A stretch of DNA of 64,000 nt from a virus (IMGVR_UViG_3300034171_000062:32001-96000); one strand, 5' to 3'. Counted from the first letter of the stretch, positions 33,081-50,984 are shown. Notes: generated from the letters alone by a model not told the origin. Translations and numbers: made by a program.

Positions 33081-33110
33081 CGGAATAAAAGGAGACCCGA
33101 AGGTCTCCTA
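33081..33110 (-). terminator. intrinsic terminator ending the desaturase run
   Basis: AGGAGACC-TTCG-GGTCTCCT-TTTATTCCG (- strand). Confidence 0.8.
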
Positions 33111-34678: not shown

Positions 34679-34687
34679 GATGGTCTC

Positions 34688-35482
34688 CTACGTCTTGAAT
34701 CGTGGCAACGGATGGTGGCGGTGGTGAATGAGTTTGATGACCTGCGCCGGGATGTCCCACTCCCACCAATTTACCCGAGTGTTCCACCGAGACGGGTGCG
34801 CGTGGTGGTTGTTGTGCCAGCCTTCGCCCATGGTGATCAGGTTCGCGATCCAACTGTTGCGACTGGTGTCGCCCTTGAGATCAAACGTCCGATAGCCGTG
34901 TAGGTGAGGGATGACGATGATGCCGCAGGCGCTGTGCAGCGACAGCACCGCCGGAATCGCATAGACAAAAACCACGCCTTGCCACCCAAGAGTAGCAAAC
35001 AGCGCCACGTTCCACACCGCAATGACGTGGAAGTAGTATTTGTGGGTCCATTTGTAGAACGGGTCTTTACGCAACCGCTTGGAGACTTGCCCGGCTTTCT
35101 TAAACCCTGAGGTGTTCCAAGCCCCAAACCACGCGCGTAAGACCCCAATGCGCTGAGGGCTGTGTGGGTCGTGTTCGTCGTCGGTGTGTATGTGGTGGAT
35201 GCGGTGCACGATCGTCCATGCCATGGGTGACCCCACGGTGGTGACAATGCCACAGAACATCAACACCGCTTCAATGGGTCGGTAGGTCTTAAAGGCCCCA
35301 TGGGCTAAGAACCGATGGAACCCAACGTCGATGCCTAAGATCCCTGTGACCCAATACGTCAGCCAGGCGGTCAGCAACCACAGCCACTGTCCTTCCATCA
35401 CCGCCCAGACGCCCACTGGGATCGCCACGGCGTGCGTCAGTATCTGGAGTAGGCGAACCCCCACGTTGTGCGTTAACTTCAC
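34688..35482 (-). CDS. Delta9-type fatty-acid desaturase, copy 2
   Basis: HRFLAH, HRIHH, GEGWHNNHH. Confidence 0.93.
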   Translation of the reverse strand: MKLTHNVGVRLLQILTHAVAIPVGVWAVMEGQWLWLLTAWLTYWVTGILGIDVGFHRFLAHGAFKTYRPIEAVLMFCGIVTTVGSPMAWTIVHRIHHIHTDDEHDPHSPQRIGVLRAWFGAWNTSGFKKAGQVSKRLRKDPFYKWTHKYYFHVIAVWNVALFATLGWQGVVFVYAIPAVLSLHSACGIIVIPHLHGYRTFDLKGDTSRNSWIANLITMGEGWHNNHHAHPSRWNTRVNWWEWDIPAQVIKLIHHRHHPLPRFKT

Positions 35483-35487
35483 GGTAA

Positions 35488-36246
35488 TTACCCTCTTCGT
35501 TTAATAACCCAAATGAACCAAGCCGTAGGATCGAGTTCCCACCACTTGTGCTGAAAACTGTACCGCCCAGGGTAAGCATGGTGGTTGTTGTGCCAGCCGT
35601 CGCCCACGGTTAAAATATGGGTGACCAGACTGTTCTTAGAATGGTCTTTGGTCTCGTAGTTCCGATAGCCCCATTGATGTGCAAAGATCCCCAACACGTA
35701 GGCGATTAAGAACGCATGCAACGCCGCGGGGAGCACGTACCCCGCCAACACCAAGTCCAACCCACCGAGGACGTAGAGACCCACCACCGCTAACGCGTGT
35801 ATGTAGAAATACCACCGATCCATAAACACCATGATCGGATCTTTCAGCACGTCCTTCATCGCTACCCGACGCCCGTCGTGTTCGAGGTGGTACAGGCAGA
35901 ACAACGCTTTCCAATGCCCCACGACTCGATGGCAATGGGGGTCTTTCTCCGTGTCCGAGTATCGGTGGTGGGCGCGGTGTATCCAGGCCCAACTGATCGG
36001 ACTGCCCGTCAAACACAGCACGCTGAGTATCCCCATTACGAACTCCACCGGGGGGTAGGTCTCATAACTGCGGTGAGAAACCAAGCGGTGCAGATAAGCG
36101 TTGAACCCCACGAGTTGTTGAACGCAGTACACAGCCAATGTTACCCACAGTAAGTCCGGGCGCTCCCAGAGAAGGTAAGCCGTCGCAGGAAAGAACGCCG
36201 CCCAAACGTAGAGTCGGTAGACGTTCATCCGAGGGGTACTATACAT
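35488..36246 (-). CDS. Delta9-type fatty-acid desaturase, copy 1
   Basis: HRLVSH, HRAHH, GDGWHNNHH; start overlaps the ketosynthase stop. Confidence 0.93.
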   Translation of the reverse strand: MYSTPRMNVYRLYVWAAFFPATAYLLWERPDLLWVTLAVYCVQQLVGFNAYLHRLVSHRSYETYPPVEFVMGILSVLCLTGSPISWAWIHRAHHRYSDTEKDPHCHRVVGHWKALFCLYHLEHDGRRVAMKDVLKDPIMVFMDRWYFYIHALAVVGLYVLGGLDLVLAGYVLPAALHAFLIAYVLGIFAHQWGYRNYETKDHSKNSLVTHILTVGDGWHNNHHAYPGRYSFQHKWWELDPTAWFIWVIKRRG

Positions 36247-37456
36247 AGCGAGAAACTCCCAGTACGCAGTTGAGCCCACCAAAACCAAACGCGTTTTTGA
36301 CAAACGCCGTCATGGGTTTTCGAATGGGGGCCTTAGGTAAGTTGATGGGGGGCAAGTCTGGATCGTATTCCAAGTTGCCGTGTGAAACAATGAAACCTTC
36401 TTGCATCATGTACAGACACAGGATCAATTCAACGATGCCACTGGCTGTGACGCTGTGGCCGAGGAGCCGTTTAAGAGCCACCACAGGCACGTCTTTAGAT
36501 CTCTCGCACTCGGCCAACACTTTGGCTTCTATAGCGTCGCCTTTGAGCGTAGAGGTCGCGTGAGCAGAGATAAAGTCCGGACAGATGCCATACCGATGCC
36601 ATAGGGTGTCTAAGACCGACGATAATGAGGCCAGTCCACCTTCGCCGGTGGGGTTGGTTAGGTCGTGTCCATCGGAGTAATCGGCGTACTCCAACGCGAT
36701 GCCGTAGTTGCGTTGCTGGGTCTCGGGGCGTTTAAAATACGCGGCCCTGGATTCCAAGATCACACACCCGGCGCCTTCGCCGACGGTGAAGCCTGCTCGG
36801 TGCGGTGAGAAGGGGACCGAGGCGTGCTCCAAGTTCGGCCCGCGATACAACGCCCGCATGGCATCGAACCCTCCGACAATTTCTTGTAAGACCTTCTCAA
36901 CGCTGACGCAAATGACAACGTCGGCCCGACCTAACTCAATCAGGTCCATGCCCTGAGTCACCACACGGAGGCCGCTGGCACAGGCGTGTTGTACGGTGTG
37001 GATTGGTCCCTTAATCCCCAGAAGGGTGGCTAGAGGACCCGTCACAGCCGTAGGGAGTGACTTTAAGAGATCGAAGGGCGAACTGCGTTTGTCTGGGTTC
37101 ATTAACGACGCATGAGCGTCCATCCCAGTGGCCCCAAACGCTGAAACCAACGCCACCCTCGGCCCTGTCTCCGAATCCCGACACACGGCCTCAGGATCGT
37201 ATCCGGCGTCTTTTAACGCTTTGCGGATAACGTAGTAAGAGAGGTTCAAGGCGTCGTTAGCAATACTCCGGGGGATGTCTGGCGCTAAGAATTGGGTATT
37301 CTCAATGCAAGGTGCGACGGAGGTGGCCTTGACGTGGGGCCAAAGTTCGATCAACGGTTGTATAGTCACGCGTTCCATCTTCAACGCTGAAACGATCTCT
37401 GAATGGTCGGTCCCATACGGTGAGAGAGAGCCGATGCCGGTAATGATTGCAGACAT
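36239..37456 (-). CDS. beta-ketoacyl-ACP synthase (FabB/FabF family)
   Basis: ITGIG, HACASG (catalytic Cys), GEGAG, AHATST..GD, KRLLGHS, NAFGFGG. Confidence 0.92.
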   Translation of the reverse strand: MSAIITGIGSLSPYGTDHSEIVSALKMERVTIQPLIELWPHVKATSVAPCIENTQFLAPDIPRSIANDALNLSYYVIRKALKDAGYDPEAVCRDSETGPRVALVSAFGATGMDAHASLMNPDKRSSPFDLLKSLPTAVTGPLATLLGIKGPIHTVQHACASGLRVVTQGMDLIELGRADVVICVSVEKVLQEIVGGFDAMRALYRGPNLEHASVPFSPHRAGFTVGEGAGCVILESRAAYFKRPETQQRNYGIALEYADYSDGHDLTNPTGEGGLASLSSVLDTLWHRYGICPDFISAHATSTLKGDAIEAKVLAECERSKDVPVVALKRLLGHSVTASGIVELILCLYMMQEGFIVSHGNLEYDPDLPPINLPKAPIRKPMTAFVKNAFGFGGLNCVLGVSRYV

Positions 37457-37527
37457 GGCGATGTCCTGTGTAAATGTGGGTTTGAATCGATATATGTGAG
37501 ACCAGGGTGCACAATTACGTTGGACCA

Positions 37528-37565
37528 TAAGGCAACCGCAGCCCGATTGGACCACCGTTGCCTTA
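37528..37565 (-). terminator. hairpin between the oxygenase block and the ketosynthase
   Basis: TAAGGCAAC...GTTGCCTTA-TGG stem; no T-tract. Confidence 0.4.
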
Positions 37566-37572
37566 AGTAAGA

Positions 37573-38097
37573 TCACTCTAAAAAGTCGATGATCAATAAG
37601 CCCAGTTGGGACCCATTACTGCCCCCCACTAAGGTGAGAAACTTTCCACTCAGTCGAACGATCTCTTTCACGCCCACCGACTCGTCGTTGATCAGCACGT
37701 CGTTCTCCGCCACCGCCAAGTACCCGGTCTGGGTCAACTCGTAGGTCTCCCCCGGTGCCAGCACTATCTTCTCAGCGGTGATGACGCGGTGTTTGGCGTT
37801 GCCGGTGCTCAAACAAAAGCCAACGGTGCCGTCTTCCAGCGCTTCCACTTCGGCCCACCGAGGGTTGGCCTTTGTAGGCACGGGGTCCGAGGCCCACAGA
37901 GTGTACTCGTTAAACGTGTTGCGGGTATGGGTACCGCCTTGCACAATAAACCGAGCTTCTTTAACGGGGATGAAATCGTCGGCCATGGTTTCTTGGTAGT
38001 CGGGTTTTCTACCTAGAATGAACTTCTCACCTTTGTCCACGTAGAACCAGGCGCAGGCTACGCCTTCGTCTTTTAGTCGATGCACTCGAGTTCGCAT
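37573..38097 (-). CDS. hypothetical beta-rich (possibly cupin-like) protein
   Basis: AAGGA RBS; part of the cluster operon. Confidence 0.65.
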   Translation of the reverse strand: MRTRVHRLKDEGVACAWFYVDKGEKFILGRKPDYQETMADDFIPVKEARFIVQGGTHTRNTFNEYTLWASDPVPTKANPRWAEVEALEDGTVGFCLSTGNAKHRVITAEKIVLAPGETYELTQTGYLAVAENDVLINDESVGVKEIVRLSGKFLTLVGGSNGSQLGLLIIDFLE

Positions 38098-38107
38098 GTC
38101 TTCGTCC

Positions 38108-38662
38108 TTACTCTTTAAGGTAAACGTCAATGGGAATGGCCAAACGCAACCCAACGCGATGTTCCTGCACGTAGTGTTGCAAGTACGACGGAAAGATCAG
38201 CAGCCCTCCCCGCTCGGGCTTGTGCTTGTACGTTCGGAAGTGGTTGTTGATCACGTCGTGTGGGTACCCACGAGAAGCCAATCCGCGAGGGTCTACCATA
38301 GACAGGTACCCTTCTTCGCCTTCCAAGTAATACAACGCTGAGACGTGAGCACCGCTGTGGTGGTGGAGTGGACTGCCGTGACCGTCACTGCTGTTGCGTA
38401 CCCAGGCTTGCCAATTGTCGATCAGGGGTTCGTAGTTAAACTGATCCCACGCGTACTGCATCATCAAAGGCACCACGTTCTCCGCAATGAACTTCTTGAG
38501 GTTGGGGTACTGAGGTAAGTGCAGATTGCGCGTTTCATCGATGTGCTGCCCGTCCAACTGCCTCGGTTGCATCATCGCCTCGTACACTAGGGCGTCGTGG
38601 TTCTCGGCAACAACCGTATCGGCGCGAAGGACGACTGGCCAAGGGTGAATGTCGATGGGCAT
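38108..38662 (-). CDS. 2OG-Fe(II) oxygenase (TIGR02466-like)
   Basis: AWV...HxH..., SALYYL, DPRG, LLIFPSYLQHYV, R.AI. Confidence 0.85.
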   Translation of the reverse strand: MPIDIHPWPVVLRADTVVAENHDALVYEAMMQPRQLDGQHIDETRNLHLPQYPNLKKFIAENVVPLMMQYAWDQFNYEPLIDNWQAWVRNSSDGHGSPLHHHSGAHVSALYYLEGEEGYLSMVDPRGLASRGYPHDVINNHFRTYKHKPERGGLLIFPSYLQHYVQEHRVGLRLAIPIDVYLKE

Positions 38663-38671
38663 GGAAACTCC

Positions 38672-39238
38672 TTATGTCGGTTCTTGCAGATAGATATCCA
38701 CTGGGATAGACACCCGCATGTCTTTGTCGTGACCGTCGACGTAGTGTTGCAAGTACGACGGAAAGATCACCAAGAGACCTTCTTTGGGGACCTCGCTAAA
38801 CAGATTGAAATGGTCGTTGCGCACCTGCGTTGGATACCCTCGACACGCCGACCCACGAGGATCGACCAAGTTGATCGCGCCACCGGAACACGCCATAGGG
38901 TAATAGATAGCGGACAACACCGACCCACTGTGTTCGTGCAACTTCATTCCTTGGCCGTCGGTGGTGACCCGGACCCAGGCGTTGTACGTGTACTGGACAG
39001 CGTCCAACCCCCAGCAGTCGTTAAGGTAAGCGAGCATCCTCGGAAGGATGTGCTCGTTGAGAAACGCGTTGGTCTGTGGGAAGTCAGTGTCCGTGACCGT
39101 GTTCTCATCCAGATCGAGGTTGTCAAAGTTACGGTTGGTTAAGCGCATCAGAGACTCGGTCACCAGGACCTCATTGTCCACGTCCTCTAACACGCTGCGC
39201 CTAACTACTGTTCGCCAAGGTTCGATGTCTTGAAACAT
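38672..39238 (-). CDS. 2OG-Fe(II) oxygenase (TIGR02466-like), paralog
   Basis: HEH, SAIYY, DPRG, LVIFPSYLQHYV, RVSI. Confidence 0.85.
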   Translation of the reverse strand: MFQDIEPWRTVVRRSVLEDVDNEVLVTESLMRLTNRNFDNLDLDENTVTDTDFPQTNAFLNEHILPRMLAYLNDCWGLDAVQYTYNAWVRVTTDGQGMKLHEHSGSVLSAIYYPMACSGGAINLVDPRGSACRGYPTQVRNDHFNLFSEVPKEGLLVIFPSYLQHYVDGHDKDMRVSIPVDIYLQEPT

Positions 39239-39657
39239 TCTGCCTCCGCCATGCACTCGGCTCGAAAATACGCAACGGTGTAGTCAACCCACTGGCCCGT
39301 TAAAGGAATGTTTTCCACCCCCCCAAAGGTATCAAGGATGGCGTCGTACGTGGTTGGGTCTTGTGAGTAAGGCACGAAATATTCGTCGTTGCCGTACAGC
39401 AGATCCGGGTCGTCCAACACCTCGAAGAACGCTTCGTTGAAGTGCTCCCACAAGAGACGCGCGTAGATCAACGCCACCGCATACGACTTCGCCGGATAGA
39501 CCAACACGTCTTGAGGGTCGGTGAAGTAAGCCACGGCCGGCACCACTAAGTCGTCGTGGTCCACCACGATGTCAAAGTTCTCCAACGCGTCCGTGTGTTC
39601 GGGCGTCATCAGGTGATACAGTTGCTGGTTGAGTTTCCAGGTTTTTTTGTGACTCAT
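39205..39657 (-). CDS. hypothetical cluster protein
   Basis: ATGA-coupled to a radical SAM gene; YPAKSY motif. Confidence 0.7.
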   Translation of the reverse strand: MSHKKTWKLNQQLYHLMTPEHTDALENFDIVVDHDDLVVPAVAYFTDPQDVLVYPAKSYAVALIYARLLWEHFNEAFFEVLDDPDLLYGNDEYFVPYSQDPTTYDAILDTFGGVENIPLTGQWVDYTVAYFRAECMAEAECFKTSNLGEQ

Positions 39658-40742
39658 GCGCTCCGCCTCACCCAATTAAATTCACTTCTCAAGTCGCGGG
39701 CGGTGGAAATGCACCGATCGGCCTTGGTGATCTCCATCACTTTCTGCACGCCCCGTACCGCGCACTTGGCAACGAACTCACAGCCGCCACAGACGCCGTT
39801 GGACTGGGCTAACGTGATACACTCGAACATAGACGCTTCTTCTTGAGTAAAGATGTTCTCGAAGGTCCAGGGTCCGGCAACCCGATGTTCCGGTTCGAAT
39901 GAGGAAAACGCTTCTACGATGAACGGGGGGACAAACATCTCTCCGTTGCGATACACCACGTCCCAATCCTCACCCTCGTTGGTTTGCAGTTCCACAATTT
40001 CAAAGTGCTCGCCCTTCTCGTTGGCCGCGATGCGAGACTGAACCAGTAAGTGGTTCAAGTGGTGGAGGCTGGTTAGAAACCGATCCCGATTGGCTGGGTC
40101 TCGCAAACTTTCACGCCCATGGGGTAAAATGATGTCACTGTGGCTGGTGGGATGAAGATCGATGCGGTACGCCCGGGTCATGATGTCACTGGTCATGGTA
40201 AACCCACGTTTGGCGTCGTTGGCTATCGACTCTTCAAAGTTCATCACGCTGTAGACCCGAGTGATCTTCACCGTCTTCAAACAACTTTCAAAATACGCCA
40301 CCCGTTTGCAAAGCTTATCGACGTAGGACGGGTTGTCGATGTGTCTTACTTCAAAGGGCACGGTAAACTTCAACAACCCATTGGGAATCATCGCCTCCAT
40401 CTGTTGGGCCAGCTTTTGATAAATGAGGGGGTTGGGATCAAGGAACGCGCAGTTCAAAGTCGTCTTCATGAACCGCCGGGCAATGGACAAAACTCTGGGG
40501 TGTTCCAGAACGGCGTCTCTATTGTCAGAACTCAAAATGTCCGTGGGTCCTATGATGAAGTTGAGCATCTCCAGTTCTGCCACCTCGAAGCTGTCAAGCA
40601 TAGCGTCGATCCGGTCAAATTCTTCTTCAGTAGGAAGAACGTTGTCTTCTTTCTCCACCATACAGCCAGAGCAGTTGTGACGACATCCGGAGGCGATCTC
40701 CATAGTGAAGTCGATTAACTTATTGATTTGGGATATGTGCAT
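39654..40742 (-). CDS. radical SAM-like protein (atypical; no GGE motif)
   Basis: CRHNCSGC (Cx3Cx2C); GPTD in place of GGE; C-terminal CGGCEFVAKC. Confidence 0.75.
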   Translation of the reverse strand: MHISQINKLIDFTMEIASGCRHNCSGCMVEKEDNVLPTEEEFDRIDAMLDSFEVAELEMLNFIIGPTDILSSDNRDAVLEHPRVLSIARRFMKTTLNCAFLDPNPLIYQKLAQQMEAMIPNGLLKFTVPFEVRHIDNPSYVDKLCKRVAYFESCLKTVKITRVYSVMNFEESIANDAKRGFTMTSDIMTRAYRIDLHPTSHSDIILPHGRESLRDPANRDRFLTSLHHLNHLLVQSRIAANEKGEHFEIVELQTNEGEDWDVVYRNGEMFVPPFIVEAFSSFEPEHRVAGPWTFENIFTQEEASMFECITLAQSNGVCGGCEFVAKCAVRGVQKVMEITKADRCISTARDLRSEFNWVRRSA

Positions 40743-40746
40743 GTGC

Positions 40747-41802
40747 TCACCAGTTGCATTTGTGACCGAGTTTGCCAAGTATGGATAAACACCGATCCGT
40801 CTCCAGTAATCGCTGAACACGGTGAACGCCCCGCGTAGCACATTTACTGACAAATCGACATCCGGAACAGTCATTAGACTGCGACGCGCGCGTAATCGAT
40901 TCGAAGAAGGTGTCTTGATCCGAACGTTGTATTGAATCCAATGTCCAAGGCTTCTCAAATTTAAAGTCGGGGTGGAAGACAGCAATCGGACTGTTAATAA
41001 ACGGTGCGATGTAAAGATCCCCATTCCGATAGGCCAAATGGTAGTCGGCCCCAACGTGAGCGCTCAAGTCGTCGACTGTGAACTCGTATCCGGCGTCCAC
41101 TTGATTGGCAAAGGTTTGGTTCTGTTTTAAGATGGCGCGCAAGAACTCATCGCGATCTTCCTTTACGCTGAGATCCCGGCGGCCGTAGTGAAACACGAAC
41201 GTGGTGGTGTCCGATTTCTCAAACAACTCGATGTGTCGGGTGGCGTAAAGAACCTCTTCATTGATCAGGCCGTTATCAAGCATGGACTCGGTCATGTTGA
41301 CGATGGCCGTCACGCTGGCGATTGTGACTGTTTCTAAGTGTTGATTGAGCCAAGCAATCCGCCCTCGGAGTTTCTCCAAGTAGGCGACGTTGCGGTGGTG
41401 TTTCAATTCAACGGGCACCAAGAACTCTACGTTCAGACCGGGCATAAACGCGTCCAACTCTTTAGCGAATTCCACGTAAGCATCGGCCTTGGGATTCAAG
41501 AACGAACAGTTAAAGACCACCGATTTAAACCCAGTAACTAGATCCCGTATGATGGGATGAGTCAATACGTCGGTCCGGTTGCTGGCCGACATGACGTCCA
41601 CCGGCGCAAACTCCATCCACGACATCTCCCACCCGCGCTCACGCACGTCGTCCACCACGTCCCGTAAGGCGTGGAGGTCGTCTTCGGTGTATGGGGTTAC
41701 ACCTGTGGTGTTAACGCTGCACCCTGAACACCCGTAGTCGCAGTCTTTCAGTAGTTCCAGTGCCAGGTTACCAATGTTGTCCCCTCGGATCATAATCGTC
41801 AT
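40747..41802 (-). CDS. radical SAM-like protein (atypical; paralog of the previous gene)
   Basis: CDYGCSGC; APVD in place of GGE; C-terminal CSGCRFVSKC. Confidence 0.75.
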   Translation of the reverse strand: MTIMIRGDNIGNLALELLKDCDYGCSGCSVNTTGVTPYTEDDLHALRDVVDDVRERGWEMSWMEFAPVDVMSASNRTDVLTHPIIRDLVTGFKSVVFNCSFLNPKADAYVEFAKELDAFMPGLNVEFLVPVELKHHRNVAYLEKLRGRIAWLNQHLETVTIASVTAIVNMTESMLDNGLINEEVLYATRHIELFEKSDTTTFVFHYGRRDLSVKEDRDEFLRAILKQNQTFANQVDAGYEFTVDDLSAHVGADYHLAYRNGDLYIAPFINSPIAVFHPDFKFEKPWTLDSIQRSDQDTFFESITRASQSNDCSGCRFVSKCATRGVHRVQRLLETDRCLSILGKLGHKCNW

Positions 41803-42743
41803 TGTGTCTCAGCCCATTGCAATAAGTGAATGAACCCGTTGCACGACTGGTCGGTACTCTGCACGTCTCTCAGGTGTTCTGACAGACACCGTCCAAAATA
41901 CGTACAGCCGCTGCAACCTGATGTCAGTACCCTCGTCTTCTCAGTGTCACACCACGCAAAATACGCGTCGATGCTGTCCATCTCCAAGAAGAACTCGTTG
42001 TCCGCCTCATCGAACTCCAACACGCCAAACTGGCCGCTGGGGGTGATGTACACATGGTCGTCGGAAAACGCGTTGCGCTGGCCAGACAGACTCTCTTGAA
42101 TCTGCTGAGCGTTGACGAATTCAAACTTCATCTCAGACTGACGTTCGTACAATTGCTTAATGAACGCCTCGTACTCCGGGTATCCTACCGGCAACTGATT
42201 GGCCTGATTCGGACTGTAGGGCTTGATCTCCACCGAACTGAGATTGGCCAGAAGATTCAATGTCCCAACAATCTCATCGGGGGTCTTTGCTAGAACCTCT
42301 GGGGTGGCCAAGATCAGAATCGAGAACTCCCGCTCCATCTTTAACATCTGTTGAAAGACGTGTTCGTGTCTCTCGCGTGCATCGAAGTCGTAGCTGACTG
42401 ACAAGTACCAGTCCGGGTCGTGCATCACAGCGTTGTTCACAGACAGATTGGTGATGATGTTCAGATCGTCGATCCCGCGGGCGTGGAGACCTTCTTTTAA
42501 TTCGTTGATGTACTCCGAAGGCAACAGCAACGGTTCGCCTCCGTAGAGGTCCACCATACCCACGGGTCTATGTGCCAGCACCTCATCCACACGTTCAAAC
42601 AACCGTGTCAGCGACAGACGTTTCTTGTCTGCCAGTTGCACTGGAGTCAAGTAACAGAAGTTGCATCGGAAGTTGCAGTAGTACGAAGGATTTACCGACA
42701 AATTGATCGGTTGATCAGTCGACGTTAACGAGTGTAAGTTCAT
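41799..42743 (-). CDS. radical SAM protein
   Basis: CNFRCNFC, YGGEP, TNL, C-terminal CSGCTYFGRC. Confidence 0.9.
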   Translation of the reverse strand: MNLHSLTSTDQPINLSVNPSYYCNFRCNFCYLTPVQLADKKRLSLTRLFERVDEVLAHRPVGMVDLYGGEPLLLPSEYINELKEGLHARGIDDLNIITNLSVNNAVMHDPDWYLSVSYDFDARERHEHVFQQMLKMEREFSILILATPEVLAKTPDEIVGTLNLLANLSSVEIKPYSPNQANQLPVGYPEYEAFIKQLYERQSEMKFEFVNAQQIQESLSGQRNAFSDDHVYITPSGQFGVLEFDEADNEFFLEMDSIDAYFAWCDTEKTRVLTSGCSGCTYFGRCLSEHLRDVQSTDQSCNGFIHLLQWAETQ

Positions 42744-43812
42744 CGATACTCTCATCCACATAGGGGGTTGGGATCAAGATCCCGGTTAATCCGTTGGCTT
42801 CGATGAGGTCGGGGGCCAGTGCTTTCATCTTGCGACAGTGTTCTTCGACGCGGCCGGTCTTCTTGGCGTCTCGGATGCTCTTCTTACAGCCGTTGCAAAT
42901 GGAGAACATGGGACAGAAGTAACAGTCCTGCTTTAAACTGTCCAACTCAAACACCTGAAGTGGGAGTTGCTTCTTACCCGTCATTTCTTCTTCGAAGTTG
43001 ATCGGGTATTCCCCATCGTCACCAAAGGAACCGCAGGAGTAATAGTCCCCACTCGGCTGCATGGCCCGGATGCCAGAGTCGCACGTGCGCTTCAAAGGAC
43101 ACGTGGTAGCACCACCCGCTAGGGCAACGGTCATTTGTTGTGTGCCGTGTTCCCACTCAGTCAGTCCTCGGCGATGGAGGTCCAGATAGACTTCGTACAT
43201 GTCCGCTACCAAGAAGTGCTGACCTTCATTGCCCATGGTGCCTTTCTTGGTTTGAACAACCGGCCCGGAGGCGTTGGCGTAGTTCAGCTTACACGACACA
43301 CCCATGGCCTTGGCCAACTCTACGGTTTTCACCGCTTCATGGCGATTACTCTCATCGACGACGGCGATGAACGTGGGGCGGTATCCTACGTGCTCTAACA
43401 TGGTGTCTGAGACGGCCCAGAACTCGTCTTCGGTGAACGGGGTATAATCCCCCTTCAATCGTTTCTCACCGTACTGGAAGCTCGTAGCGACGCCCACACG
43501 AGGGTGATTGAACAGAGGCGCCCACTTCCCCGGTTTCTTGTAGAACGGCCAGAGATTGGAGGTCAGTGAGATGCTGGTGTTTTCCATCTTCAACTCGTCC
43601 AACATCTCAATCAAGGCCCAGTAATACGCCGGTGGCATCATTAACGGGTCGCCGCCGTTGACGATGATGGTGTTGGTTTCCGGGAAACGTTCCAAGAACC
43701 GACGTATATCGACCAACTCCAGAATGTCGTTGCTGTCCTCGGCGATGTTTGTGCTGGAACAGAACGTGCATTTAAAGTTGCATTTCTCCGTGGGTTTGAT
43801 TATGAGATCAAT
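42715..43812 (-). CDS. radical SAM/SPASM protein with apparent ATT start
   Basis: Frame extends past the track start to IDLIIKPTEKCNFKCTFC; GGDP; C-terminal CYFCPMFSICNGC; AGGAGG 8 nt before ATT. Confidence 0.88.
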   Translation of the reverse strand: MDLIIKPTEKCNFKCTFCSSTNIAEDSNDILELVDIRRFLERFPETNTIIVNGGDPLMMPPAYYWALIEMLDELKMENTSISLTSNLWPFYKKPGKWAPLFNHPRVGVATSFQYGEKRLKGDYTPFTEDEFWAVSDTMLEHVGYRPTFIAVVDESNRHEAVKTVELAKAMGVSCKLNYANASGPVVQTKKGTMGNEGQHFLVADMYEVYLDLHRRGLTEWEHGTQQMTVALAGGATTCPLKRTCDSGIRAMQPSGDYYSCGSFGDDGEYPINFEEEMTGKKQLPLQVFELDSLKQDCYFCPMFSICNGCKKSIRDAKKTGRVEEHCRKMKALAPDLIEANGLTGILIPTPYVDESIDELTLVNVD

Positions 43813-43841
43813 CTTACTACCCTCCTAGCCCGGAGGCTCGT

Positions 43842-44900
43842 TTAAACGTTCAGTGTGGGTATGCGTTGAGCGGCACCATCGCTGACGGCGTCGATGTATC
43901 GATGGGTGGCTTTGTACACACACTCATCCATTTCGTCTCGGTGGCGATACGCGTGTTGCATGAAGCACCCCAACTCACAGCGTTGAAAGTACTCGCACGT
44001 CAAGCACCCATATTTCTCCATGAAGTGTTCTTCAATGCCCCGATTGCTCTGCGGATCGATGGGCACTTCGTAGATCTCTTCGGCAATCTTTGGGTCGATG
44101 AGGTTACCGCACCCACAGGTAGTGCCGTCTTCCAAAATCAACTTACTGGATCGACACGACAAACTACTGGACTTGCGTTCCATCCACCCAGCGATCGGTT
44201 CGCAGTTTGGGTAGTTATCGATCAAAAACGTAAACAACTTGAACAGATCCAAATCGCCTGGGGCGGCTGGAGTAACTTCATCGGGCATCAGGTAATCGAA
44301 ATAGATCTTAAACCCAGCGCCATAGACCCATTTAAAGAACGCGTCCTGATCTCTTAGGAAGTGATCGATGTTCTGCTTGGTTGCGACTAGACAGACGCTT
44401 CTAATGATTCTGGGTCCGAAGTATTCTAAGTTGGCTTTAAACGCTTCAAACTGCTTGCGGTTAAAGCGACCTTTGGGATCGTAGGACGTCGTGAACGTCG
44501 TGGGAATGCCCGCCGTTGCGCACTCTTCAATGAACAGACTCAATTGAGTTCGATCGTCCGTCACCAGGTTGGTCACCCAGTTAAGCGTGACTCGGATGTT
44601 ATTCAAGCGTGCGTGGGCTACGATCGCTTGTGCCAGTTTTACGTACGCCGCGCGCATCGTGGGAGTAAAGACCTCCGGCGCGAAGACCTCCCCACCCATG
44701 ATGTTAAACACCACAACCGACTTGGTCTCCTTGTCCAGAAGCTTCACCACCGCGGGCAATTTCCCCAGTATATCGTCCACGCCTACTAAGGAGTCGTGGT
44801 CCTGCCAGCAGAAACTGCACGACAGGTTACAGTACTCGAACAGGTGTATCGTGTATTCCTGTTCGGGGTCTCGCTTGCTGTTCAATAAGAGATCGGTCAT
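43842..44900 (-). CDS. radical SAM/SPASM protein
   Basis: CNLSCSFC, MGGE, C-terminal CLTCEYFQRCELGC. Confidence 0.9.
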   Translation of the reverse strand: MTDLLLNSKRDPEQEYTIHLFEYCNLSCSFCWQDHDSLVGVDDILGKLPAVVKLLDKETKSVVVFNIMGGEVFAPEVFTPTMRAAYVKLAQAIVAHARLNNIRVTLNWVTNLVTDDRTQLSLFIEECATAGIPTTFTTSYDPKGRFNRKQFEAFKANLEYFGPRIIRSVCLVATKQNIDHFLRDQDAFFKWVYGAGFKIYFDYLMPDEVTPAAPGDLDLFKLFTFLIDNYPNCEPIAGWMERKSSSLSCRSSKLILEDGTTCGCGNLIDPKIAEEIYEVPIDPQSNRGIEEHFMEKYGCLTCEYFQRCELGCFMQHAYRHRDEMDECVYKATHRYIDAVSDGAAQRIPTLNV

Positions 44901-45910
44901 AGTTCGAACCCTTTACACGCCTCCGACTTCAATCCCACCGCCCAATGGATGACGTGGACTTTTAACTTGTCCATGTCGGCCCAATCTAGGTAGTCGGTGT
45001 GTTCGTTGCTGGCACGTATCATGGAAATGAAAAGATCGGTTGCTTCGCCATCCTCAATCGGGTCGACGCTGCTGATGATCCTTAGTTTGGCCCGTTCGGC
45101 TTCGATTTGCAGTTTCTCGATCTGAGGTTCCTGATCCAGATACAAGGCAAAGTCCCGACACAGCGCGTCTTGAGTGGGTTGTTTCATCCGCGTGATCCGA
45201 AGCGTCAGATTGGGGTCGGTCAAGAAATTGAACCCAGGTACCTTACGCAGTAAATTCACCTCGCCGACGTGCTGGCTGGCGTCGTATCCGTACTTCTTCT
45301 GCATGTGGGCTGAGAAGAACAAAGACACCAGATTACGCTGAATTTCATGCACGTGATTGATCGTCGACCGTAACGCAAACATACGTACGTCCTCGGCGAT
45401 GCTTACGCGCTTGTTGCCTGAAAGATAGTCCAACAACTTATACTCCAGAGAGAGCTTCTCTGGAATGTCGCGCACCACCGTCCGAAGGTCGGCGTCGCCT
45501 TCGAGGTTGGCGTAATCTGAAACCATCTCTTTAACGACTTCCCCTTTAGGTAACGCCACGCCCTGAGTATTCAATGCCACCAGTTCCAGTCCCAATAGGG
45601 TTTGTACTTGACTCAGAGTGGCGTTGGGGAAAATGGCTTTCAGCCACTTACTGATCAACTTACCGTAAGACTCAAGACTGGTGTAGATAACGATCTTCTT
45701 GTCCCCTACGCCTTTATACTGCGTGAGTAACTTAGTGAAACCGGTGGCCACAAACTCATCTTCGTCAGCGGTCAGTCCCATTAGGATAGGACCAGCAAGT
45801 TCTCGCTCGTCGTAGTTCTCAGCCATAACCTTGGAGGCCAGGTAGAACGCATGTTTTTCCGATTTGATGCTATCCACGGCTAGGTAGATGCGATTAAACA
45901 AATGATACAT
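44897..45910 (-). CDS. hypothetical cluster protein
   Basis: 337 aa; coupled at both ends. Confidence 0.75.
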   Translation of the reverse strand: MYHLFNRIYLAVDSIKSEKHAFYLASKVMAENYDERELAGPILMGLTADEDEFVATGFTKLLTQYKGVGDKKIVIYTSLESYGKLISKWLKAIFPNATLSQVQTLLGLELVALNTQGVALPKGEVVKEMVSDYANLEGDADLRTVVRDIPEKLSLEYKLLDYLSGNKRVSIAEDVRMFALRSTINHVHEIQRNLVSLFFSAHMQKKYGYDASQHVGEVNLLRKVPGFNFLTDPNLTLRITRMKQPTQDALCRDFALYLDQEPQIEKLQIEAERAKLRIISSVDPIEDGEATDLFISMIRASNEHTDYLDWADMDKLKVHVIHWAVGLKSEACKGFEL

Positions 45911-46635
45911 TACGTTTCCTCGATGGCTATTTCGTCGTTCTTTAAAGCGACGAGCGCGTCTTCGAACTCTTCGTTCGTAAGCATCTCATCGTCCACCATA
46001 GACACCAGAAGAACGTGTAAGTCGTTCTCTGGAATGGCCCAAAACGAAAACAGGTTCTTACTTTTGAACATGTAGTCGTTAAAGTACTTGGTGTAATTCC
46101 GCACCAGGCCGTCGTTTACCACTTCCATGGCGATAGGAAACAACGGATTGTCAAACAGATTGACAAAGTTGATGCCTTTGGTGTCTGCCGTGTCGTCGAC
46201 TGGGTAGTTGTTGACCAGCGCTTGCAGGGCGTCGTCTTGAATGGTTGTCATCATGTACAAACTCATGGAGTCGATCAACGACAGCCACTTGCCCAATATA
46301 CCGAGTCGGTCTTTAATCCATTTGTCGGTCACCCAATTGCACACACCCAATCCCTTGATGTGGAGCATTACTTCCAACACCATGGTTTCCAACTTCTTAC
46401 ATTTCAGTAAGGTGGGTAGGTTCAAATACGCGTCCAACACCTCCAAGGCGTCCTCACCCAAAAAGGTGACTTCAACCGGTAGGTCTAGGTTACTTAAGTA
46501 GATCAGGGCTTGCAGTGGGTTTACTCGATCCTTCGAGGCCGACAGGTCGATCTCCAAAGAGACCTCTGGATCGCCGATGATCTCCCGAAGGGTGGCGACG
46601 GGAATGGGGACGGTGGTTTGGACTACAGTACTCAT
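45910..46635 (-). CDS. hypothetical cluster protein
   Basis: TAATG-coupled; AGAGGA RBS. Confidence 0.75.
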   Translation of the reverse strand: MSTVVQTTVPIPVATLREIIGDPEVSLEIDLSASKDRVNPLQALIYLSNLDLPVEVTFLGEDALEVLDAYLNLPTLLKCKKLETMVLEVMLHIKGLGVCNWVTDKWIKDRLGILGKWLSLIDSMSLYMMTTIQDDALQALVNNYPVDDTADTKGINFVNLFDNPLFPIAMEVVNDGLVRNYTKYFNDYMFKSKNLFSFWAIPENDLHVLLVSMVDDEMLTNEEFEDALVALKNDEIAIEET

Positions 46636-47192
46636 TAACGACGTCCTCTTGAGTTGTGACAGCTGTCGTGACATTGGGCGTGACAGATGTCGCGCGCTAA
46701 CGTGTGGGTGGTGTTCACTCGGGCGTAGTTATAATACGCATTGCGTAACCGTTCAATGAACCCGTCCGCGCCCGCCCGATCGATGGCGTAGCCGTCGTCC
46801 ACCGTGCCCGCAGCTTGGGCTGGGATGTTGATTTCCTGGGCGGCGGTTAGATTGGCGATGGTCGTGGTGTCGTATATCACTCTATACCCATTGCCTGACG
46901 ACCACCCAGTCCGGTTCTGACGGATATAAATGCGTGTCCGGCGGATGCGGGAGTAGTTCTTCATATACGCATGCAGGGTAGCGCGCATGGTGTCGGCATC
47001 CAATACCCCACCCGGACCTTCAATCGCCGCGTAGGGCGGCAATGAGTAGTATCCGCTGGTAGTGCCCCCAAACCATCCGTACAGGGAATTTGCTGGGTAG
47101 TTGTTGGTGCCCCAGGATATCCCACTGCGGGACAGGGCACTTACCCTTTCACTGAATTTTAAGTAGACGTCTGCTGTCTTGATCTCGGCCAT
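46635..47192 (-). CDS. candidate modified substrate / virion protein ending in CHAQCHDSCHNSRGRR
   Basis: 185 aa; Gly/aromatic-rich body; all three Cys in the terminal (CHxx)3 motif; flanked by rSAM genes. Confidence 0.75.
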   Translation of the reverse strand: MAEIKTADVYLKFSERVSALSRSGISWGTNNYPANSLYGWFGGTTSGYYSLPPYAAIEGPGGVLDADTMRATLHAYMKNYSRIRRTRIYIRQNRTGWSSGNGYRVIYDTTTIANLTAAQEINIPAQAAGTVDDGYAIDRAGADGFIERLRNAYYNYARVNTTHTLARDICHAQCHDSCHNSRGRR

Positions 47193-47238
47193 GTCAAGGT
47201 TCCTATAAGTTTAAATGTCCATACGATCTAACGATCCT

Positions 47239-48297
47239 TTATCCCACGTTAAGTACCGGAATGATATCCGTCTCTCCGTATTTAAAGTGAGATAGGAGCA
47301 ATCTCAATCCAGGACACGAGTTGCCCTGCCAAATCAGTCGATGGCAGTCCCCGCCACAGACATCGAATAAGTGACAACTTAAGCAGTTGGGGTTAACGTC
47401 CAGTTCGTCGACAATGCGTTCCGTACGACCGTCGCTTAAAAGGAACTCTTCCAAATTGTCGTCCAAGGTCCCGTTCGATTCCACCTTGGCGCCGTTGGCA
47501 CACCCGCCGATGTTTCCTGCGCCGTCTACCGTAAACAAGTTCTGTTCGCACGTGCGGCAGTTGGTGTCTACGTTATACTGGTTGGTTTCGAACTTAGTCT
47601 CTATGGTTTCCAACGTGCCGATGGTGAAGTTGGGTTTCAGACGTTTGTACGCGAAGTACAAATCGTAGTAAAACTTATCCACCGCCCGATTGTCTGGGAA
47701 CATATGGGGGTTGTCCACCGCGTTGCCGTCGGAAGTTAGACGTTCGATGGCCACGTCCGTCACCCCAAACGTCCCCCACAACTTGATCAACTCATCGACG
47801 TTGTACGTAAGAGTCTGATCGGTGACGGTCACAAACATCTTAATGGTGATGTTCATGTCTCGCAGAGTCTTCAAGTTCCCAAGCCACTGTTGATACATCC
47901 GCTCGGTCTTAAATCGATACACTGGGTCCCAACTCGTACCGACGTGACTCCCCATCACTTTGATGAAAAAGTTCGTGTGTTCATCGGTCAACTTATATAT
48001 GAGATTGGTGGTGGCGCCGATTGAGATGTCGTCCCAGCGTTCTTCGCCCACCAGACGTTTGACCGTTAAGGCAAAGTCCCAATGTTCGTGAATAGGACGT
48101 AAGAAAGGCTCGCCCCCATGTAACTCCAAATGTAAATGTTCGTCGTTGAACTGCTGAGCCAACTCACTGACCCACCCAGCAACCTTCTGAGTATCCCAAG
48201 CAGTCTTCGCCCCCTTCGACCCTGAGGTAAAGCAGTGATCGCAATCCAGATTACAAGTGTCCGTTGGTTTGATGTACACTACCTTCATAACTGCCAC
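47239..48297 (-). CDS. radical SAM/SPASM protein
   Basis: YIKPTDTCNLDCDHC, LHGGEP, CRTC...GC...CLSCHLFDVCGGDC...C. Confidence 0.92.
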   Translation of the reverse strand: MAVMKVVYIKPTDTCNLDCDHCFTSGSKGAKTAWDTQKVAGWVSELAQQFNDEHLHLELHGGEPFLRPIHEHWDFALTVKRLVGEERWDDISIGATTNLIYKLTDEHTNFFIKVMGSHVGTSWDPVYRFKTERMYQQWLGNLKTLRDMNITIKMFVTVTDQTLTYNVDELIKLWGTFGVTDVAIERLTSDGNAVDNPHMFPDNRAVDKFYYDLYFAYKRLKPNFTIGTLETIETKFETNQYNVDTNCRTCEQNLFTVDGAGNIGGCANGAKVESNGTLDDNLEEFLLSDGRTERIVDELDVNPNCLSCHLFDVCGGDCHRLIWQGNSCPGLRLLLSHFKYGETDIIPVLNVG

Positions 48298-48770
48298 CGG
48301 TCTTCTAAGAATTGTTCGTTACCAAAACTGATCATGATCGATTCGAATTCGTTTGTAGCACGATGCATAACGCCCGCCGGAATCCACACCGTTGGGTTGT
48401 ATATCGGATCGAGGGTGATGACCTCCCCACCAATTTCAATCGTCTTTTTACCGTAAACGCATTTCAGTAGAATGTCGTACGGGTCTTCATGCAACCTAAA
48501 GCTAGGCGCGCCAGCCACCGCCCAAAACAGATGTGCGTTGCACGGACCGTCGTGACCGGTTTCCTTCTTTATCCGAACCGTCTCCAACTGCACCTCTCGG
48601 AACACCCGTTCCAACTCTTCCACCTTGATGGTCTTTAAGGAACCGTCGAACGCCTCAGCCACTGAGCTTATCGGGCGAATGTGGTGGTCGGTGTCGATGC
48701 GAGAGACCAAACTTTCCTCGTACAGATCCGGCAGCGTCAGCAGCATTTCAATGCGGTCTTTAAAATCCAT
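48285..48770 (-). CDS. JmjC/cupin-type Fe(II)/2OG hydroxylase
   Basis: NAHLF...SFRLHEDPYD (HxD)...GKK...WIPAGVMH; GAGGAG RBS. Confidence 0.8.
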   Translation of the reverse strand: MDFKDRIEMLLTLPDLYEESLVSRIDTDHHIRPISSVAEAFDGSLKTIKVEELERVFREVQLETVRIKKETGHDGPCNAHLFWAVAGAPSFRLHEDPYDILLKCVYGKKTIEIGGEVITLDPIYNPTVWIPAGVMHRATNEFESIMISFGNEQFLEDRWQL

Positions 48771-48791
48771 GGCGGGTCTCCTCAGTAATCT

Positions 48792-48795
48792 CATA
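48792..48795 (-). promoter_or_regulatory. putative TATG late promoter heading the modification cluster
   Basis: TATG lies between the upstream terminator and the RBS, as in phiKZ late promoters; a short motif, so weak evidence. Confidence 0.4.
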
Positions 48796-48822: not shown

Positions 48823-48854
48823 ACGGAAAAAGAGAGGACCCGAAGGTCCTCTCT
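48823..48854 (-). terminator. intrinsic terminator
   Basis: AGAGAGGACC-TTCG-GGTCCTCTCT-TTTTCCG (- strand). Confidence 0.85.
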
Positions 48855-48872: not shown

Positions 48873-50516
48873 TTACTGCCACTGAGGTGGCCATACCACG
48901 CGCCAGGCGCCACTGACGAACGCGTGCAACTGACCGCCCACTTCCCGAAGGGAGAGCGATTCTGCCACGTTCTTTTGCACATACTCAGTTAGCACGTTGG
49001 TCAAACGCCCACTGACGTAAGATTCGACTAAGGCCGGGGTCATGTACCGATCGATGGCGGTGCCTGAGACGGCTTCTGTCTCATTGGCGACCGGGAAGTT
49101 CTCCACCAGACCTAACCCGGTCTGCTCCTTCGTAACCGCGTGGGGGTTGGTCTTGTCGTTAACGTGCGCAGTTAACTGATCCCCTGCAATCTTCTCGATG
49201 GCTTCTCTAACCCGCATGGGCGTCATGTACCGAGTGTTGCTGGCGCCCGATTCTGCTTCGGCTGTATCGGCTATCTGTAGGTTCTCAACGCTACCTAAGC
49301 CCACCTGCGCCTTACTGACGTTGTGGGGGTTGTTAATGGCGTTAACGTGCGCATTAAACGCCTGCCCGACTAACTCGTCGATGGCAGACGCCACCACCGT
49401 GGGCGACATGTATCGATCGCCACGCGTGGCTTCACGCCCGTCGGCCTCATCCGCCATTGGGTAGTTTTGCACGGCCGACAATCCGACCTGAGCCTTAGTG
49501 ACGTTGTGTGGGTTCGACTCGTCATTGATGTGGGCCTGCATCCGATCGCCAAAGAGAGTCTGTACTCCGGCCTTCATGGTAGCTGGGGTAACGAATCGAT
49601 TGGTGGCCGATCCGGCCTCCGCTTCCTCGACAGTCGCATCCGGATAGTTAGACACCGACCCCAACCCGGCCTGCGCCTTGGTCACGTTGTGGGGGTTGTC
49701 GGTTCTCGCCGTATGGGCGTTGAACGGAAGAGTGGCCTGTTCGTTAATTGCCTGAGCCACTCGAAGTGCCGTCATGAACCGAGCGTTGGACGTTCCGTCT
49801 CGTGCCTCTAATTCCGTCGCGGTGCGGTAGTTATCAAGTAACCCGAGTCCCACCTGAGCCTTAGTGACTACGTGTGGGTTGTCAGTACGGGCTTCGTGAC
49901 TGTGCAGTTCGTCGCGTACTTCTTCCGCCCGTACCAACGCTTTCTGATACCGGTCTTCGATCATCGCCTTGAGTTCGTCGTGAGACGCGATGTCGCCGTA
50001 CAGAACGGCCTGCCGGATGCCGTTCAACGCCTCGACTACAAATTCAAACCCATACAGGTCGCCCAAGTCATGAAGGTGCTTGGAGGGGGGGAATGCATCG
50101 GGCCGCCCCAAAAGATCGCCCCACATGACCTCACGTTCATCCAGGTTCAAATTCTCGATGAGGTCGATGATAACCTGAGTGATGTTCGCGTAGTCCCCAC
50201 CCAATACTTGGTAGTTGATGGACAGCTCGTTGGACACCTCAGGATCGGTGACGATGAGGCCGGCACATACTTCTTTACCTGACCGTTCTGACGGATCGGC
50301 GTAGTACATGATCGGAATGTACTGATCGTTCGGAACCAGTATTTCGCCGGTGTCGGCGTCGGTGACCACCAACGACTCGGTAAAAAACGCCCCGTAACGA
50401 GGAACCGCCGCGCGGTTGATGCCCGGTTCCAATGTGTGTAGTTCGCCTAAGATATTATTCTCAGGCGCCGTCCCTGTCAAATCCAGGGGATACTTTATGA
50501 CGTAGTTCTCGCTCAT
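48873..50516 (-). CDS. phiKZ-like tail fibre/baseplate protein with NPH repeats
   Basis: N-terminal YPLDLTG...N.I.GE.H domain; five H...NPHxV(T/S)KxQxGLG-type repeats. Confidence 0.85.
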   Translation of the reverse strand: MSENYVIKYPLDLTGTAPENNILGELHTLEPGINRAAVPRYGAFFTESLVVTDADTGEILVPNDQYIPIMYYADPSERSGKEVCAGLIVTDPEVSNELSINYQVLGGDYANITQVIIDLIENLNLDEREVMWGDLLGRPDAFPPSKHLHDLGDLYGFEFVVEALNGIRQAVLYGDIASHDELKAMIEDRYQKALVRAEEVRDELHSHEARTDNPHVVTKAQVGLGLLDNYRTATELEARDGTSNARFMTALRVAQAINEQATLPFNAHTARTDNPHNVTKAQAGLGSVSNYPDATVEEAEAGSATNRFVTPATMKAGVQTLFGDRMQAHINDESNPHNVTKAQVGLSAVQNYPMADEADGREATRGDRYMSPTVVASAIDELVGQAFNAHVNAINNPHNVSKAQVGLGSVENLQIADTAEAESGASNTRYMTPMRVREAIEKIAGDQLTAHVNDKTNPHAVTKEQTGLGLVENFPVANETEAVSGTAIDRYMTPALVESYVSGRLTNVLTEYVQKNVAESLSLREVGGQLHAFVSGAWRVVWPPQWQ

Positions 50517-50543: not shown

Positions 50544-50984
50544 TCAGGGGGTCTTGGCATCGTTAAAGCAAGGCGCCTCACCGGAGTAGTCTGCGATGCG
50601 ACGTTCCAGACGGTCGTCGGCTGAGATCTGCCGCTTCTTGTTGTATCGTCGCCATCCCATAACACGCACGGCCCAGTACATCAATAAAGCGATGTGTGAC
50701 GGCACCCCTTCCTCTAACATTGCTCTATGAAACAACGCGTCGGCTACGGCACGAGAGACCGACGTACCGGAATAGAGAAAGTCGTGTAACAACGCGGACC
50801 AACGGGCCCACCCTTTAAATAGTGAAAACAACACTGGGACGTGCGGAACGCTGTCCAAGTCGGTGACCAAACCTCGCGGTATGGTAAACCCATAACAATC
50901 CCAGTCTTCATTCACTACCCAAAAATGTCGGGTAGGCAAAGGACTAAGGGACGGCAGTTTTAAATGCTCTTTAACCTCGGACAT
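50544..50984 (-). CDS. DUF1353-family protein
   Basis: TIPRGLVTDLDSVP...ALLHDFLY...ADALF..AM. Confidence 0.85.
   Translation of the reverse strand: MSEVKEHLKLPSLSPLPTRHFWVVNEDWDCYGFTIPRGLVTDLDSVPHVPVLFSLFKGWARWSALLHDFLYSGTSVSRAVADALFHRAMLEEGVPSHIALLMYWAVRVMGWRRYNKKRQISADDRLERRIADYSGEAPCFNDAKTP

Follow-up and report, generated by a model that had tools for sequence, protein, structure and literature searches.

The 64,000-nucleotide stretch of DNA analysed here (the window; bases 32001–96000 of the 170,557-bp IMG/VR virus record IMGVR_UViG_3300034171_000062, which is estimated to be 62 % complete) carries six radical S-adenosylmethionine (SAM) genes on its minus strand, between positions 39654 and 48297. 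Our analysis suggests, with a probability that we put at roughly 60 %, that they supply the enzymes of a conserved cassette for protein maturation, carried by an uncultured giant phage of the phiKZ-like kind. Four of them (rSAM-A to rSAM-D) are canonical, while the other two (atypical-1 and atypical-2) belong to a distinct family, and the cassette includes a candidate substrate, CHrep, with a Cys- and His-containing tail.

An earlier note made from this DNA had reported the six genes, and all proved to be real, each encoding an N-terminal Cx3Cx2C motif. As it had described, four are canonical, with GGE or GGD: rSAM-A (47239–48297; CNLDCDHC, HGGEP), rSAM-B (43842–44900; CNLSCSFC, MGGEV), rSAM-C (42715–43806; CNFKCTFC, NGGDP) and rSAM-D (41799–42761; CNFRCNFC, YGGEP). 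The adjacent pair does retain Cx3Cx2C, as CDYGCSGC in atypical-1 (40747–41802) and CRHNCSGC in atypical-2 (39654–40742), with GGE replaced by APVD and GPTD, respectively. Across the 64–67 orthologues read for each of rSAM-A to rSAM-D, Cx3Cx2C was invariant and GGE/GGD was conserved in all four; of the cassette enzymes, rSAM-C is conserved best. SPASM-like cysteine clusters at the end of all six proteins, as stated in the note, were confirmed for rSAM-A, rSAM-B and rSAM-C, with 8, 6 and 8 conserved C-terminal cysteines, respectively, but not for rSAM-D and the atypical pair, which have four. These three proteins do not show the seven-cysteine SPASM motif CX9-15GX4C...CX2CX5CX3C...C, the +4 cysteine being absent. 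Since rSAM-D (C283, C286, C292 and C307) has the same Cx2Cx5C...C set as atypical-1 and atypical-2, the reduced C-terminal cluster is not special to the pair. The earlier observation was thus confirmed in part, and four corrections to it were needed.

Two gene starts required particular care. In rSAM-C, all ATG, GTG and TTG codons come after the cluster motif, so that initiation at the first of them would remove Cx3Cx2C; the gene must therefore start at a non-canonical codon, and the sole workable one, after an in-frame TAG, is ATT 43806, located 8 nt after an AGGAGG sequence. For atypical-2, the start is ATG 40742, 4 nt after the TGA of atypical-1, and not the TTG of a 466-aa open reading frame (ORF).

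The four canonical enzymes all matched the family phrog_1802 (E values from 1e-42 to 1e-54 overall; 5e-44 for rSAM-B). When compared with the Pfam profile PF04055 (gathering cut-off, 29.5 bits), rSAM-A, rSAM-C and rSAM-D scored 30.0, 38.2 and 33.6 bits, respectively, while rSAM-B remained under the cut-off (21.0 bits), although its motifs are present and it matches phrog_1802. The SPASM profile TIGR04085 (cut-off, 27 bits) was exceeded by rSAM-A alone (28.4 bits); rSAM-C scored 21.5 bits despite its 8 conserved cysteines, and rSAM-B, with 6, scored 14 bits. The top profile matches of rSAM-A were PapB, DynA, AmcB, YhhB, anSME and HxsB (E values from 1e-13 to 1e-10), and the best folds for the model of the atypical family were likewise peptide- or protein-modifying SPASM enzymes, which bears out the peptide-maturase-like character given to the genes in the earlier note. 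None of the equivalog cut-offs of known peptide maturases was reached (PapB, DynA, DarE, AmcB, YhhB, anSME, MftC and the CXXX-repeat maturase were compared), the best scores being 49.1 bits against a cut-off of 340 for PapB, 48.3 against 450 for DynA, 41.3 against 349 for anSME and 16.2 against 350 for the CXXX-repeat maturase. The six proteins did not fall into known cofactor- or nucleotide-modifying families, a placement that the note had named as one that would speak against it: none reached the cut-off for MoaA, QueE, NrdG, viperin, NirJ or HpnH, and matches to such families were confined to the N-terminal cluster region, none scoring above 31 bits where the cut-offs are 131–515. Similarly, viperin-like matches to the PADLOC defence models were restricted to the N-terminal stretch. 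As a whole, the earlier interpretation is partly supported.

To place the genes in a wider context, we looked for related loci in cultured phages and in IMG/VR. A DNA search with the window found no near-identical DNA in cultured phages. At the protein level, the matches of the region were to phiKZ-like and other jumbo phages, namely Pseudomonas phage pPa_SNUABM_DT01, Ralstonia phages RSL2/RSF1, Burkholderia phages FLC6/FLC8 and S13, Agrobacterium phage Atu_ph07 and Sinorhizobium phage Phosso. The cultured carriers of the cassette are pPa_SNUABM_DT01, RSL2/RSF1, FLC6/8 and S13, the matches of Atu_ph07 being limited to rSAM-A and the CHrep tail. The scan of IMG/VR yielded 181 CHrep-encoding contigs, and gene order was read in 80 fetched loci (individual loci are given below by numbers beginning with L). 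It was almost fixed, running cupin, rSAM-A, CHrep, p254, p337 (when present), rSAM-B, rSAM-C, rSAM-D, the atypical copies (when present), p156 and one or more 2-oxoglutarate (2OG)-Fe(II) oxygenases. The same gene order was found in pPa_SNUABM_DT01, while RSL2 has the same genes with some rearrangement.

Three genes that do not belong to the radical SAM group lie inside the interval (46635–47192, 45910–46674 and 44897–45910), and the first of them encodes CHrep (46635–47192, minus strand; 185 aa), in which a folded N-terminal domain is followed by a tail, predicted to be disordered, with a (CHxx)3RGRR end. In the viral loci, rSAM-A was always immediately upstream of the CHrep gene. The tail, which was spotted when homologues from cultured phages were aligned, reads C-H-A-Q-C-H-D-S-C-H-N-S-R-G-R-R at its end in the window. 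The CHrep homologues of cultured phages include ORF068 of RSL2 and PA10_00065 of pPa_SNUABM_DT01. Among 33 homologues with 28–55 % identity, residues C170, H171, C174, H175, C178, H179, R182, G183, R184 and R185 were invariant, as was the N-terminal block SWGTN...P...F.GT..G, and the tail was kept in 80 of the 80 viral loci. In the AlphaFold2 (AF2) model, the predicted local distance difference test score (pLDDT) was 88.7 overall, with residues 1–170 folded and values below 50 at residues 177–184. The N-terminal domain had no match among solved folds (best Z score, 4.1), and CHrep matched no NCBIfam model, no HxsA model and no known iron-sulfur (Fe-S) carrier family. From its linkage to the enzymes, the conservation of its tail and analogy, CHrep, with this flexible tail, is likely to be the substrate of the cassette.

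Some variation was observed in CHrep itself. In L090 and L092, both contigs of Rhodobacteraceae metagenome-assembled genomes (MAGs), the CHrep genes are duplicated in tandem. The tail encoded at L095:3481-4044 has just two CH units, ICHGCHSSRGRR, and that encoded at L101:9508-10167 is irregular, CHSNHCSHSNHGSRGRR. The tail sequence showed no link with the number of atypical copies other than a lineage effect. Virion proteomics of phages ΦRP12/RP31 was uninformative on whether CHrep is present in the virion, as their radical SAM cluster looks different from the cassette.

The atypical proteins were assigned to phrog_31457. An exhaustive HMMER search with atypical-1 among 1.84 billion representative proteins retrieved 146 relatives, and 119 full-length database sequences were aligned with the two from the window. 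Both Cx3Cx2C and Cx2Cx5C were present in every full-length relative, and none had GG[ED] at the motif position, the lone match being an unrelated N-terminal GGE. Across the 121 sequences, C21, C25, C28, C312, C315, C321 and C338 were invariant, and G27, P67, T68, D69, N75 and R208 were conserved in at least 90 %. The cluster motif of the family is CxxxCxGC, in which a glycine replaces the usual aromatic residue before the third cysteine, and the consensus GPTD, with P67, T68 and D69, occupies the place of GGE. In agreement with this, a profile-profile alignment with the rSAM-B group placed GPT(D) on GGE, and in the same alignment an acidic residue and an Asn of the atypical family fell on the strand-4 TSYD...N region of the canonical enzymes. 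PF04055 did not match atypical-1 and gave 17.1 bits for atypical-2, below its cut-off; 26 of the 121 members matched Pfam Radical_SAM at E≤0.01. When the family profile was compared with solved structures, the result was borderline, covering the cluster loop of GDGT-MAS with an E value of 0.057. Judged from the sequences, the motifs of the family have been replaced by other conserved motifs rather than eroded, and the copies do not look decayed. The suggestion of a new subfamily made in the earlier note is therefore supported: atypical-1 and atypical-2 are members of a separate family, marked by conserved motifs not shared with the canonical enzymes, and Pfam Radical_SAM mostly fails to recognize it.

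The AF2 model of the atypical family, built with the 121-sequence alignment, had a pLDDT of 95.2 and a predicted template modelling score of 0.92. It shows the strand-helix repeats of a partial barrel, with GPTD straight after strand beta-2 and the four C-terminal cysteines in a hairpin-plus-helix region. In an all-against-all structural search, the best matches were all radical SAM enzymes. First came anSMEcpe, with a Z score of 14.1 over 303 aligned residues, and second ChlB, with 13.9, followed by TigE, CteB, SuiB, PqqE and SkfB, and Foldseek was concordant; viperin, MoaA and LAM matched more weakly (Z 9.6–10.7). We also considered that the pair might be a recent duplicate of a canonical paralogue, and rejected this origin because atypical-1 and atypical-2 share 30 % identity and fall in different deep clades of the tree, and because their profile matches to rSAM-A to rSAM-D were weak and N-terminal (probability, 7–91 %). 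A complex prediction for atypical-1 with atypical-2 scored 0.02 against a mark of 0.32 and was used neither for nor against any reading. One atypical-family gene, at L047:14406-15491, is broken into a pair of neighbouring ORFs, by either a frameshift or a sequencing error.

The atypical genes were not present in every cassette. Among 59 complete cassettes, 34 had none, three had one, 19 had two and three had three, and those with two or three copies correspond to the phiKZ-like lineage with a fibre gene upstream. The surroundings of more distant members were sampled by six look-ups, and in all six the atypical homologue sat among cassette genes; CHrep was in view in three of these contigs, the other three being short. 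At one further locus (L094:2791-15651), rSAM-A, CHrep and four atypical genes were found, with no rSAM-B, rSAM-C or rSAM-D in the 17 kb fetched. This pattern of zero to four copies, together with the composition of L094, fits independent tailoring enzymes rather than obligate non-catalytic partners of rSAM-B to rSAM-D, and the atypical proteins look like optional tailoring enzymes acting on the same substrate. An expanded variant was observed in L084, L086 and L089, all from Bdellovibrionota MAGs, with a second rSAM-A-like gene and two atypical genes, one of which is very divergent (about 100 bits), arranged around CHrep.

Based on these data, we propose that rSAM-A to rSAM-D would install radical cross-links or other changes on the Cys and His residues of the CHrep tail, possibly thioether or His-based carbon-carbon links such as those made by their nearest relatives, and that the cupin and the 2OG oxygenases would add oxidative steps. 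The atypical proteins may contribute optional, lineage-specific Fe-S tailoring steps on CHrep, for which they would probably continue to rely on a [4Fe-4S] cluster with an open iron, within a remodelled pocket for SAM or another ligand. Several observations weigh against this proposal. The substrate role of CHrep is drawn solely from linkage, tail conservation and analogy; p254, p337 and p156 have no recognizable function, and neither a protease nor an exporter is evident among the genes. The similarity of the atypical model to SPASM enzymes is moderate (Z 14, root-mean-square deviation >5 Å), a value that would fit an old, divergent branch. Finally, the atypical family lacks the aromatic residue before the third cysteine, GGE and the TSxD-type motif of strand 4, of which only the acidic residue aligns; with these three SAM-contact features missing, the atypical proteins may not cleave SAM at all.

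This last point leads to a reading in which the atypical family would consist of enzymes that keep the radical SAM scaffold and its cluster and work without reductive SAM cleavage, for example with the unique iron bound by another ligand or by a substrate Cys or His, or through redox or sulfur chemistry alone. It is unusual for GGE and the aromatic residue to be replaced together, the CxGC and GPTD that stand in for two or three SAM-contact motifs are equally conserved, and the family barely touches the Pfam profile or, by sequence, any solved radical SAM enzyme. However, the loss of GGE does not decide the matter, since this motif varies among enzymes of proven radical SAM activity; the canonical TSYD...N region does have an acidic residue and an Asn aligned with it, and the overall fold of the model is that of SAM-cleaving SPASM enzymes. 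We regard this reading as rather unlikely. The earlier note had raised the possibility that the pair are non-catalytic Fe-S partners; such partners, or pseudo-enzymes, would bind or present the substrate, or pass electrons to the canonical radical SAM enzymes. The absence of GGE and of the aromatic SAM-contact residue agrees with such a role, a fully ligated four-Cys auxiliary cluster could carry electrons, and two or three adjacent copies occur in most close relatives. On the other hand, the conserved polar residues D69, N75 and R208 and the invariant three-Cys open-iron site are more readily explained by an active site, as is the conservation of G27, P67 and T68, more than half of the complete cassettes have no copy, and the four copies of L094 stand beside one canonical enzyme, with no rSAM-B, rSAM-C or rSAM-D to partner. 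Taken together, these results do not favour non-catalytic partners, which we consider distinctly improbable.

We also weighed whether the cassette might act on a non-protein substrate, such as a nucleotide, a sugar or a lipid made by neighbouring genes, with CHrep serving as a carrier of metal or Fe-S clusters or as an electron donor. A flexible tail with three Cys and three His residues would be able to hold a metal or a cluster, and in the window the cassette abuts a ketosynthase gene (PF00109/PF02801) and tandem desaturase-like genes (33108–37576, minus strand), which lie directly downstream. Yet, of about 80 loci, just the two closest relatives (L004 and L005) had the ketosynthase near the cassette, and L004 alone had the desaturases, indicating that these genes are not part of the cassette. 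In addition, no cofactor or nucleotide cut-off was reached, the best matches and folds were peptide- or protein-modifying SPASM enzymes, CHrep is outside known Fe-S carrier families, and its invariant RGRR end and the strict adjacency of rSAM-A and CHrep resemble a precursor-maturase pair. A non-protein substrate thus appears very unlikely.

The cassette is not confined to phages, as ten loci were found among 185,579 species-representative genomes, and, of the 301 Bdellovibrionota genomes sampled, 10 encode a CHrep homologue. In L100 (G281:C2:2206000-2225900) and L101, the whole cassette is carried by Bdellovibrionota chromosomes, with its order scrambled over both strands. One copy lies in a 2.45-Mb contig amid genes for signal peptidase II (LspA), LolA, an SMC protein, a DinG-like helicase and matrixin peptidases, and in L098, another bacterial contig, the cassette is located beside secE-nusG-rplKAJL. 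In CHrep proteins encoded by cellular genomes, the tail is still present, with variants, but the N-terminal block is not. That Bdellovibrionota chromosomes also carry the cassette suggests a function not tied to virion building alone. On the boldest reading, to which we give little credence, the atypical family could be a new class of Fe-S enzymes, derived from the radical SAM/SPASM scaffold, that bind a ligand other than SAM, or bind SAM in a new manner. Together with the four canonical enzymes and three oxygenases, they would turn the (Cys-His-x-x)3 tail of CHrep into a cross-linked or metal-binding structure not described so far. On this reading, as the protein is common to giant phages and predatory Bdellovibrionota, it could act in the attack or takeover of Gram-negative cells.

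Among published systems, the nearest analogue of the protein-maturation cassette is the HXS antiphage system, in which an effector with His-Xaa-Ser repeats, HxsA, is encoded with the radical SAM enzymes HxsB and HxsC and the small protein HxsD (PMC13128918). The effector of that system is a protein matured by two radical SAM enzymes, which install a +8 Da change at the motif SHRSS (PMC13128918). As in HXS, the cassette has several radical SAM/SPASM enzymes for a whole protein with short His-containing repeats; two of the three CHrep repeats read H-x-S, and rSAM-A has a partial match to HxsB (E value, 5e-10). By contrast, the repeats of the cassette are C-H-x-x with an invariant Cys, number only three and lie at the extreme C-terminus, followed by RGRR; rSAM-A scores 38.7 bits against an HxsB cut-off of 370, and no HxsA model recognizes CHrep. 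The cassette also has four to eight enzymes instead of two, in addition to oxygenases, and its carriers are mostly phages. Neither the scores nor the type of repeat therefore place it within HXS.

The other comparisons gave similarly partial likenesses. The Cx3Cx2C motif, GGE and six- to eight-Cys end of rSAM-A, rSAM-B and rSAM-C are shared with the SPASM maturases (anSME, the thioether synthases PapB and CteB, DynA/DarE and the cyclophane formers AmcB/YhhB/GrrM), while the scores lie far under the cut-offs of these families, the substrate motif differs, and rSAM-D and the atypical proteins keep only Cx2Cx5C...C. The CXXX-repeat system (TIGR04115) also has a target with a Cys every four residues beside a radical SAM/SPASM maturase, but the sole match to it was that of rSAM-D noted above (16.2 bits), and the target of the cassette is a folded 185-aa protein with three repeats and an invariant His. 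As for enzymes with a twitch or partial SPASM domain (BtrN, MoaA and SkfB), they resemble the atypical proteins in having a single auxiliary cluster, and SkfB, MoaA and BtrN were structural matches with Z scores of 8–11. In twitch domains, it is the first (Aux I-type) site that is retained, whereas Cx2Cx5C with the distal Cys looks, from the cysteine spacing, like the second (Aux II-type) site.

Sets of radical SAM genes had already been recorded in jumbo phages. Six were listed for pPa_SNUABM_DT01, gp057–066 (PMC8541153), and the eight in a structural cluster of Aeromonas phage 332-Vera were called ‘highly unusual’ (PMC12390700). The genome papers of FLC6 and S13 list cupin, radical SAM and 2OG genes. 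According to our comparison, the multi-gene sets of pPa_SNUABM_DT01 and the RSL2 type are the same cassette. The jumbo-phage genome papers give no function, substrate, cassette, tail protein, split into two families or altered motifs; as far as we could find, the number of radical SAM genes was already known, while the anatomy of the cassette, its candidate substrate, the family with altered motifs and the link with Bdellovibrionota are new. Much new chemistry comes from the radical SAM/SPASM enzymes acting on peptides and proteins, and those encoded by phages are almost unexplored. With a defined cassette, a candidate substrate that ends in an invariant 16-residue tail and cultured carriers, the puzzle posed by these gene sets becomes testable, and the about 150 sequence clusters with replaced SAM-binding motifs provide a test case for what the radical SAM fold requires.

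The remaining cassette members, all on the minus strand, were examined individually. The first gene (48285–48794) encodes a 169-aa cupin/JmjC-like protein with a weak match to PF08007 (JmjC_2) and matches to phrog_8014 and phrog_4992; it lies upstream of rSAM-A in most loci and is called a cupin in the cultured relatives. The conserved member p254 (phrog_20767; 45910–46674) has a listed start, ATG 46674, that gives a 40-nt overlap with CHrep; the real start may instead be a second, internal ATG (46635), which overlaps the CHrep stop codon and is the one given in the atlas record. The gene p337 (44897–45910) is fast-evolving, was picked up in about one third of the loci with phmmer and gave no family or fold lead in Pfam, NCBIfam, PHROG or atlas searches. 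Atlas searches with p254 and p337 returned nothing usable, with all scores below 0.9 and template modelling scores below 0.4. The last conserved core gene, p156 (39205–39675), has no Pfam family, and it is followed by two genes for 2OG-Fe(II) oxygenases of PF13759, one associated with the cassette (38672–39256) and a second at 38108–38662.

At the upstream border, a consensus scan found a terminator-like hairpin on the minus strand (48831–48854), with a 10-bp stem and a T-run, between a tail-fibre-like gene and the cupin gene; judged from this sequence, it is the probable upstream boundary of the cassette transcription unit. A sigma-70 promoter scan found fewer sites than in shuffled sequence, the consensus being of little meaning for a phiKZ-like phage. 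The tail-fibre-like protein (48873–50516, minus strand; 547 aa) has no Pfam family and contains about five NPH(N/A)VTKAQ(V/A)GLG-like repeats, and only the lineage carrying two or three atypical genes has homologues of it upstream of the cassette. Adjoining the fibre-like gene is a gene for a DUF1353 (PF07087) protein (50544–50984, minus strand).

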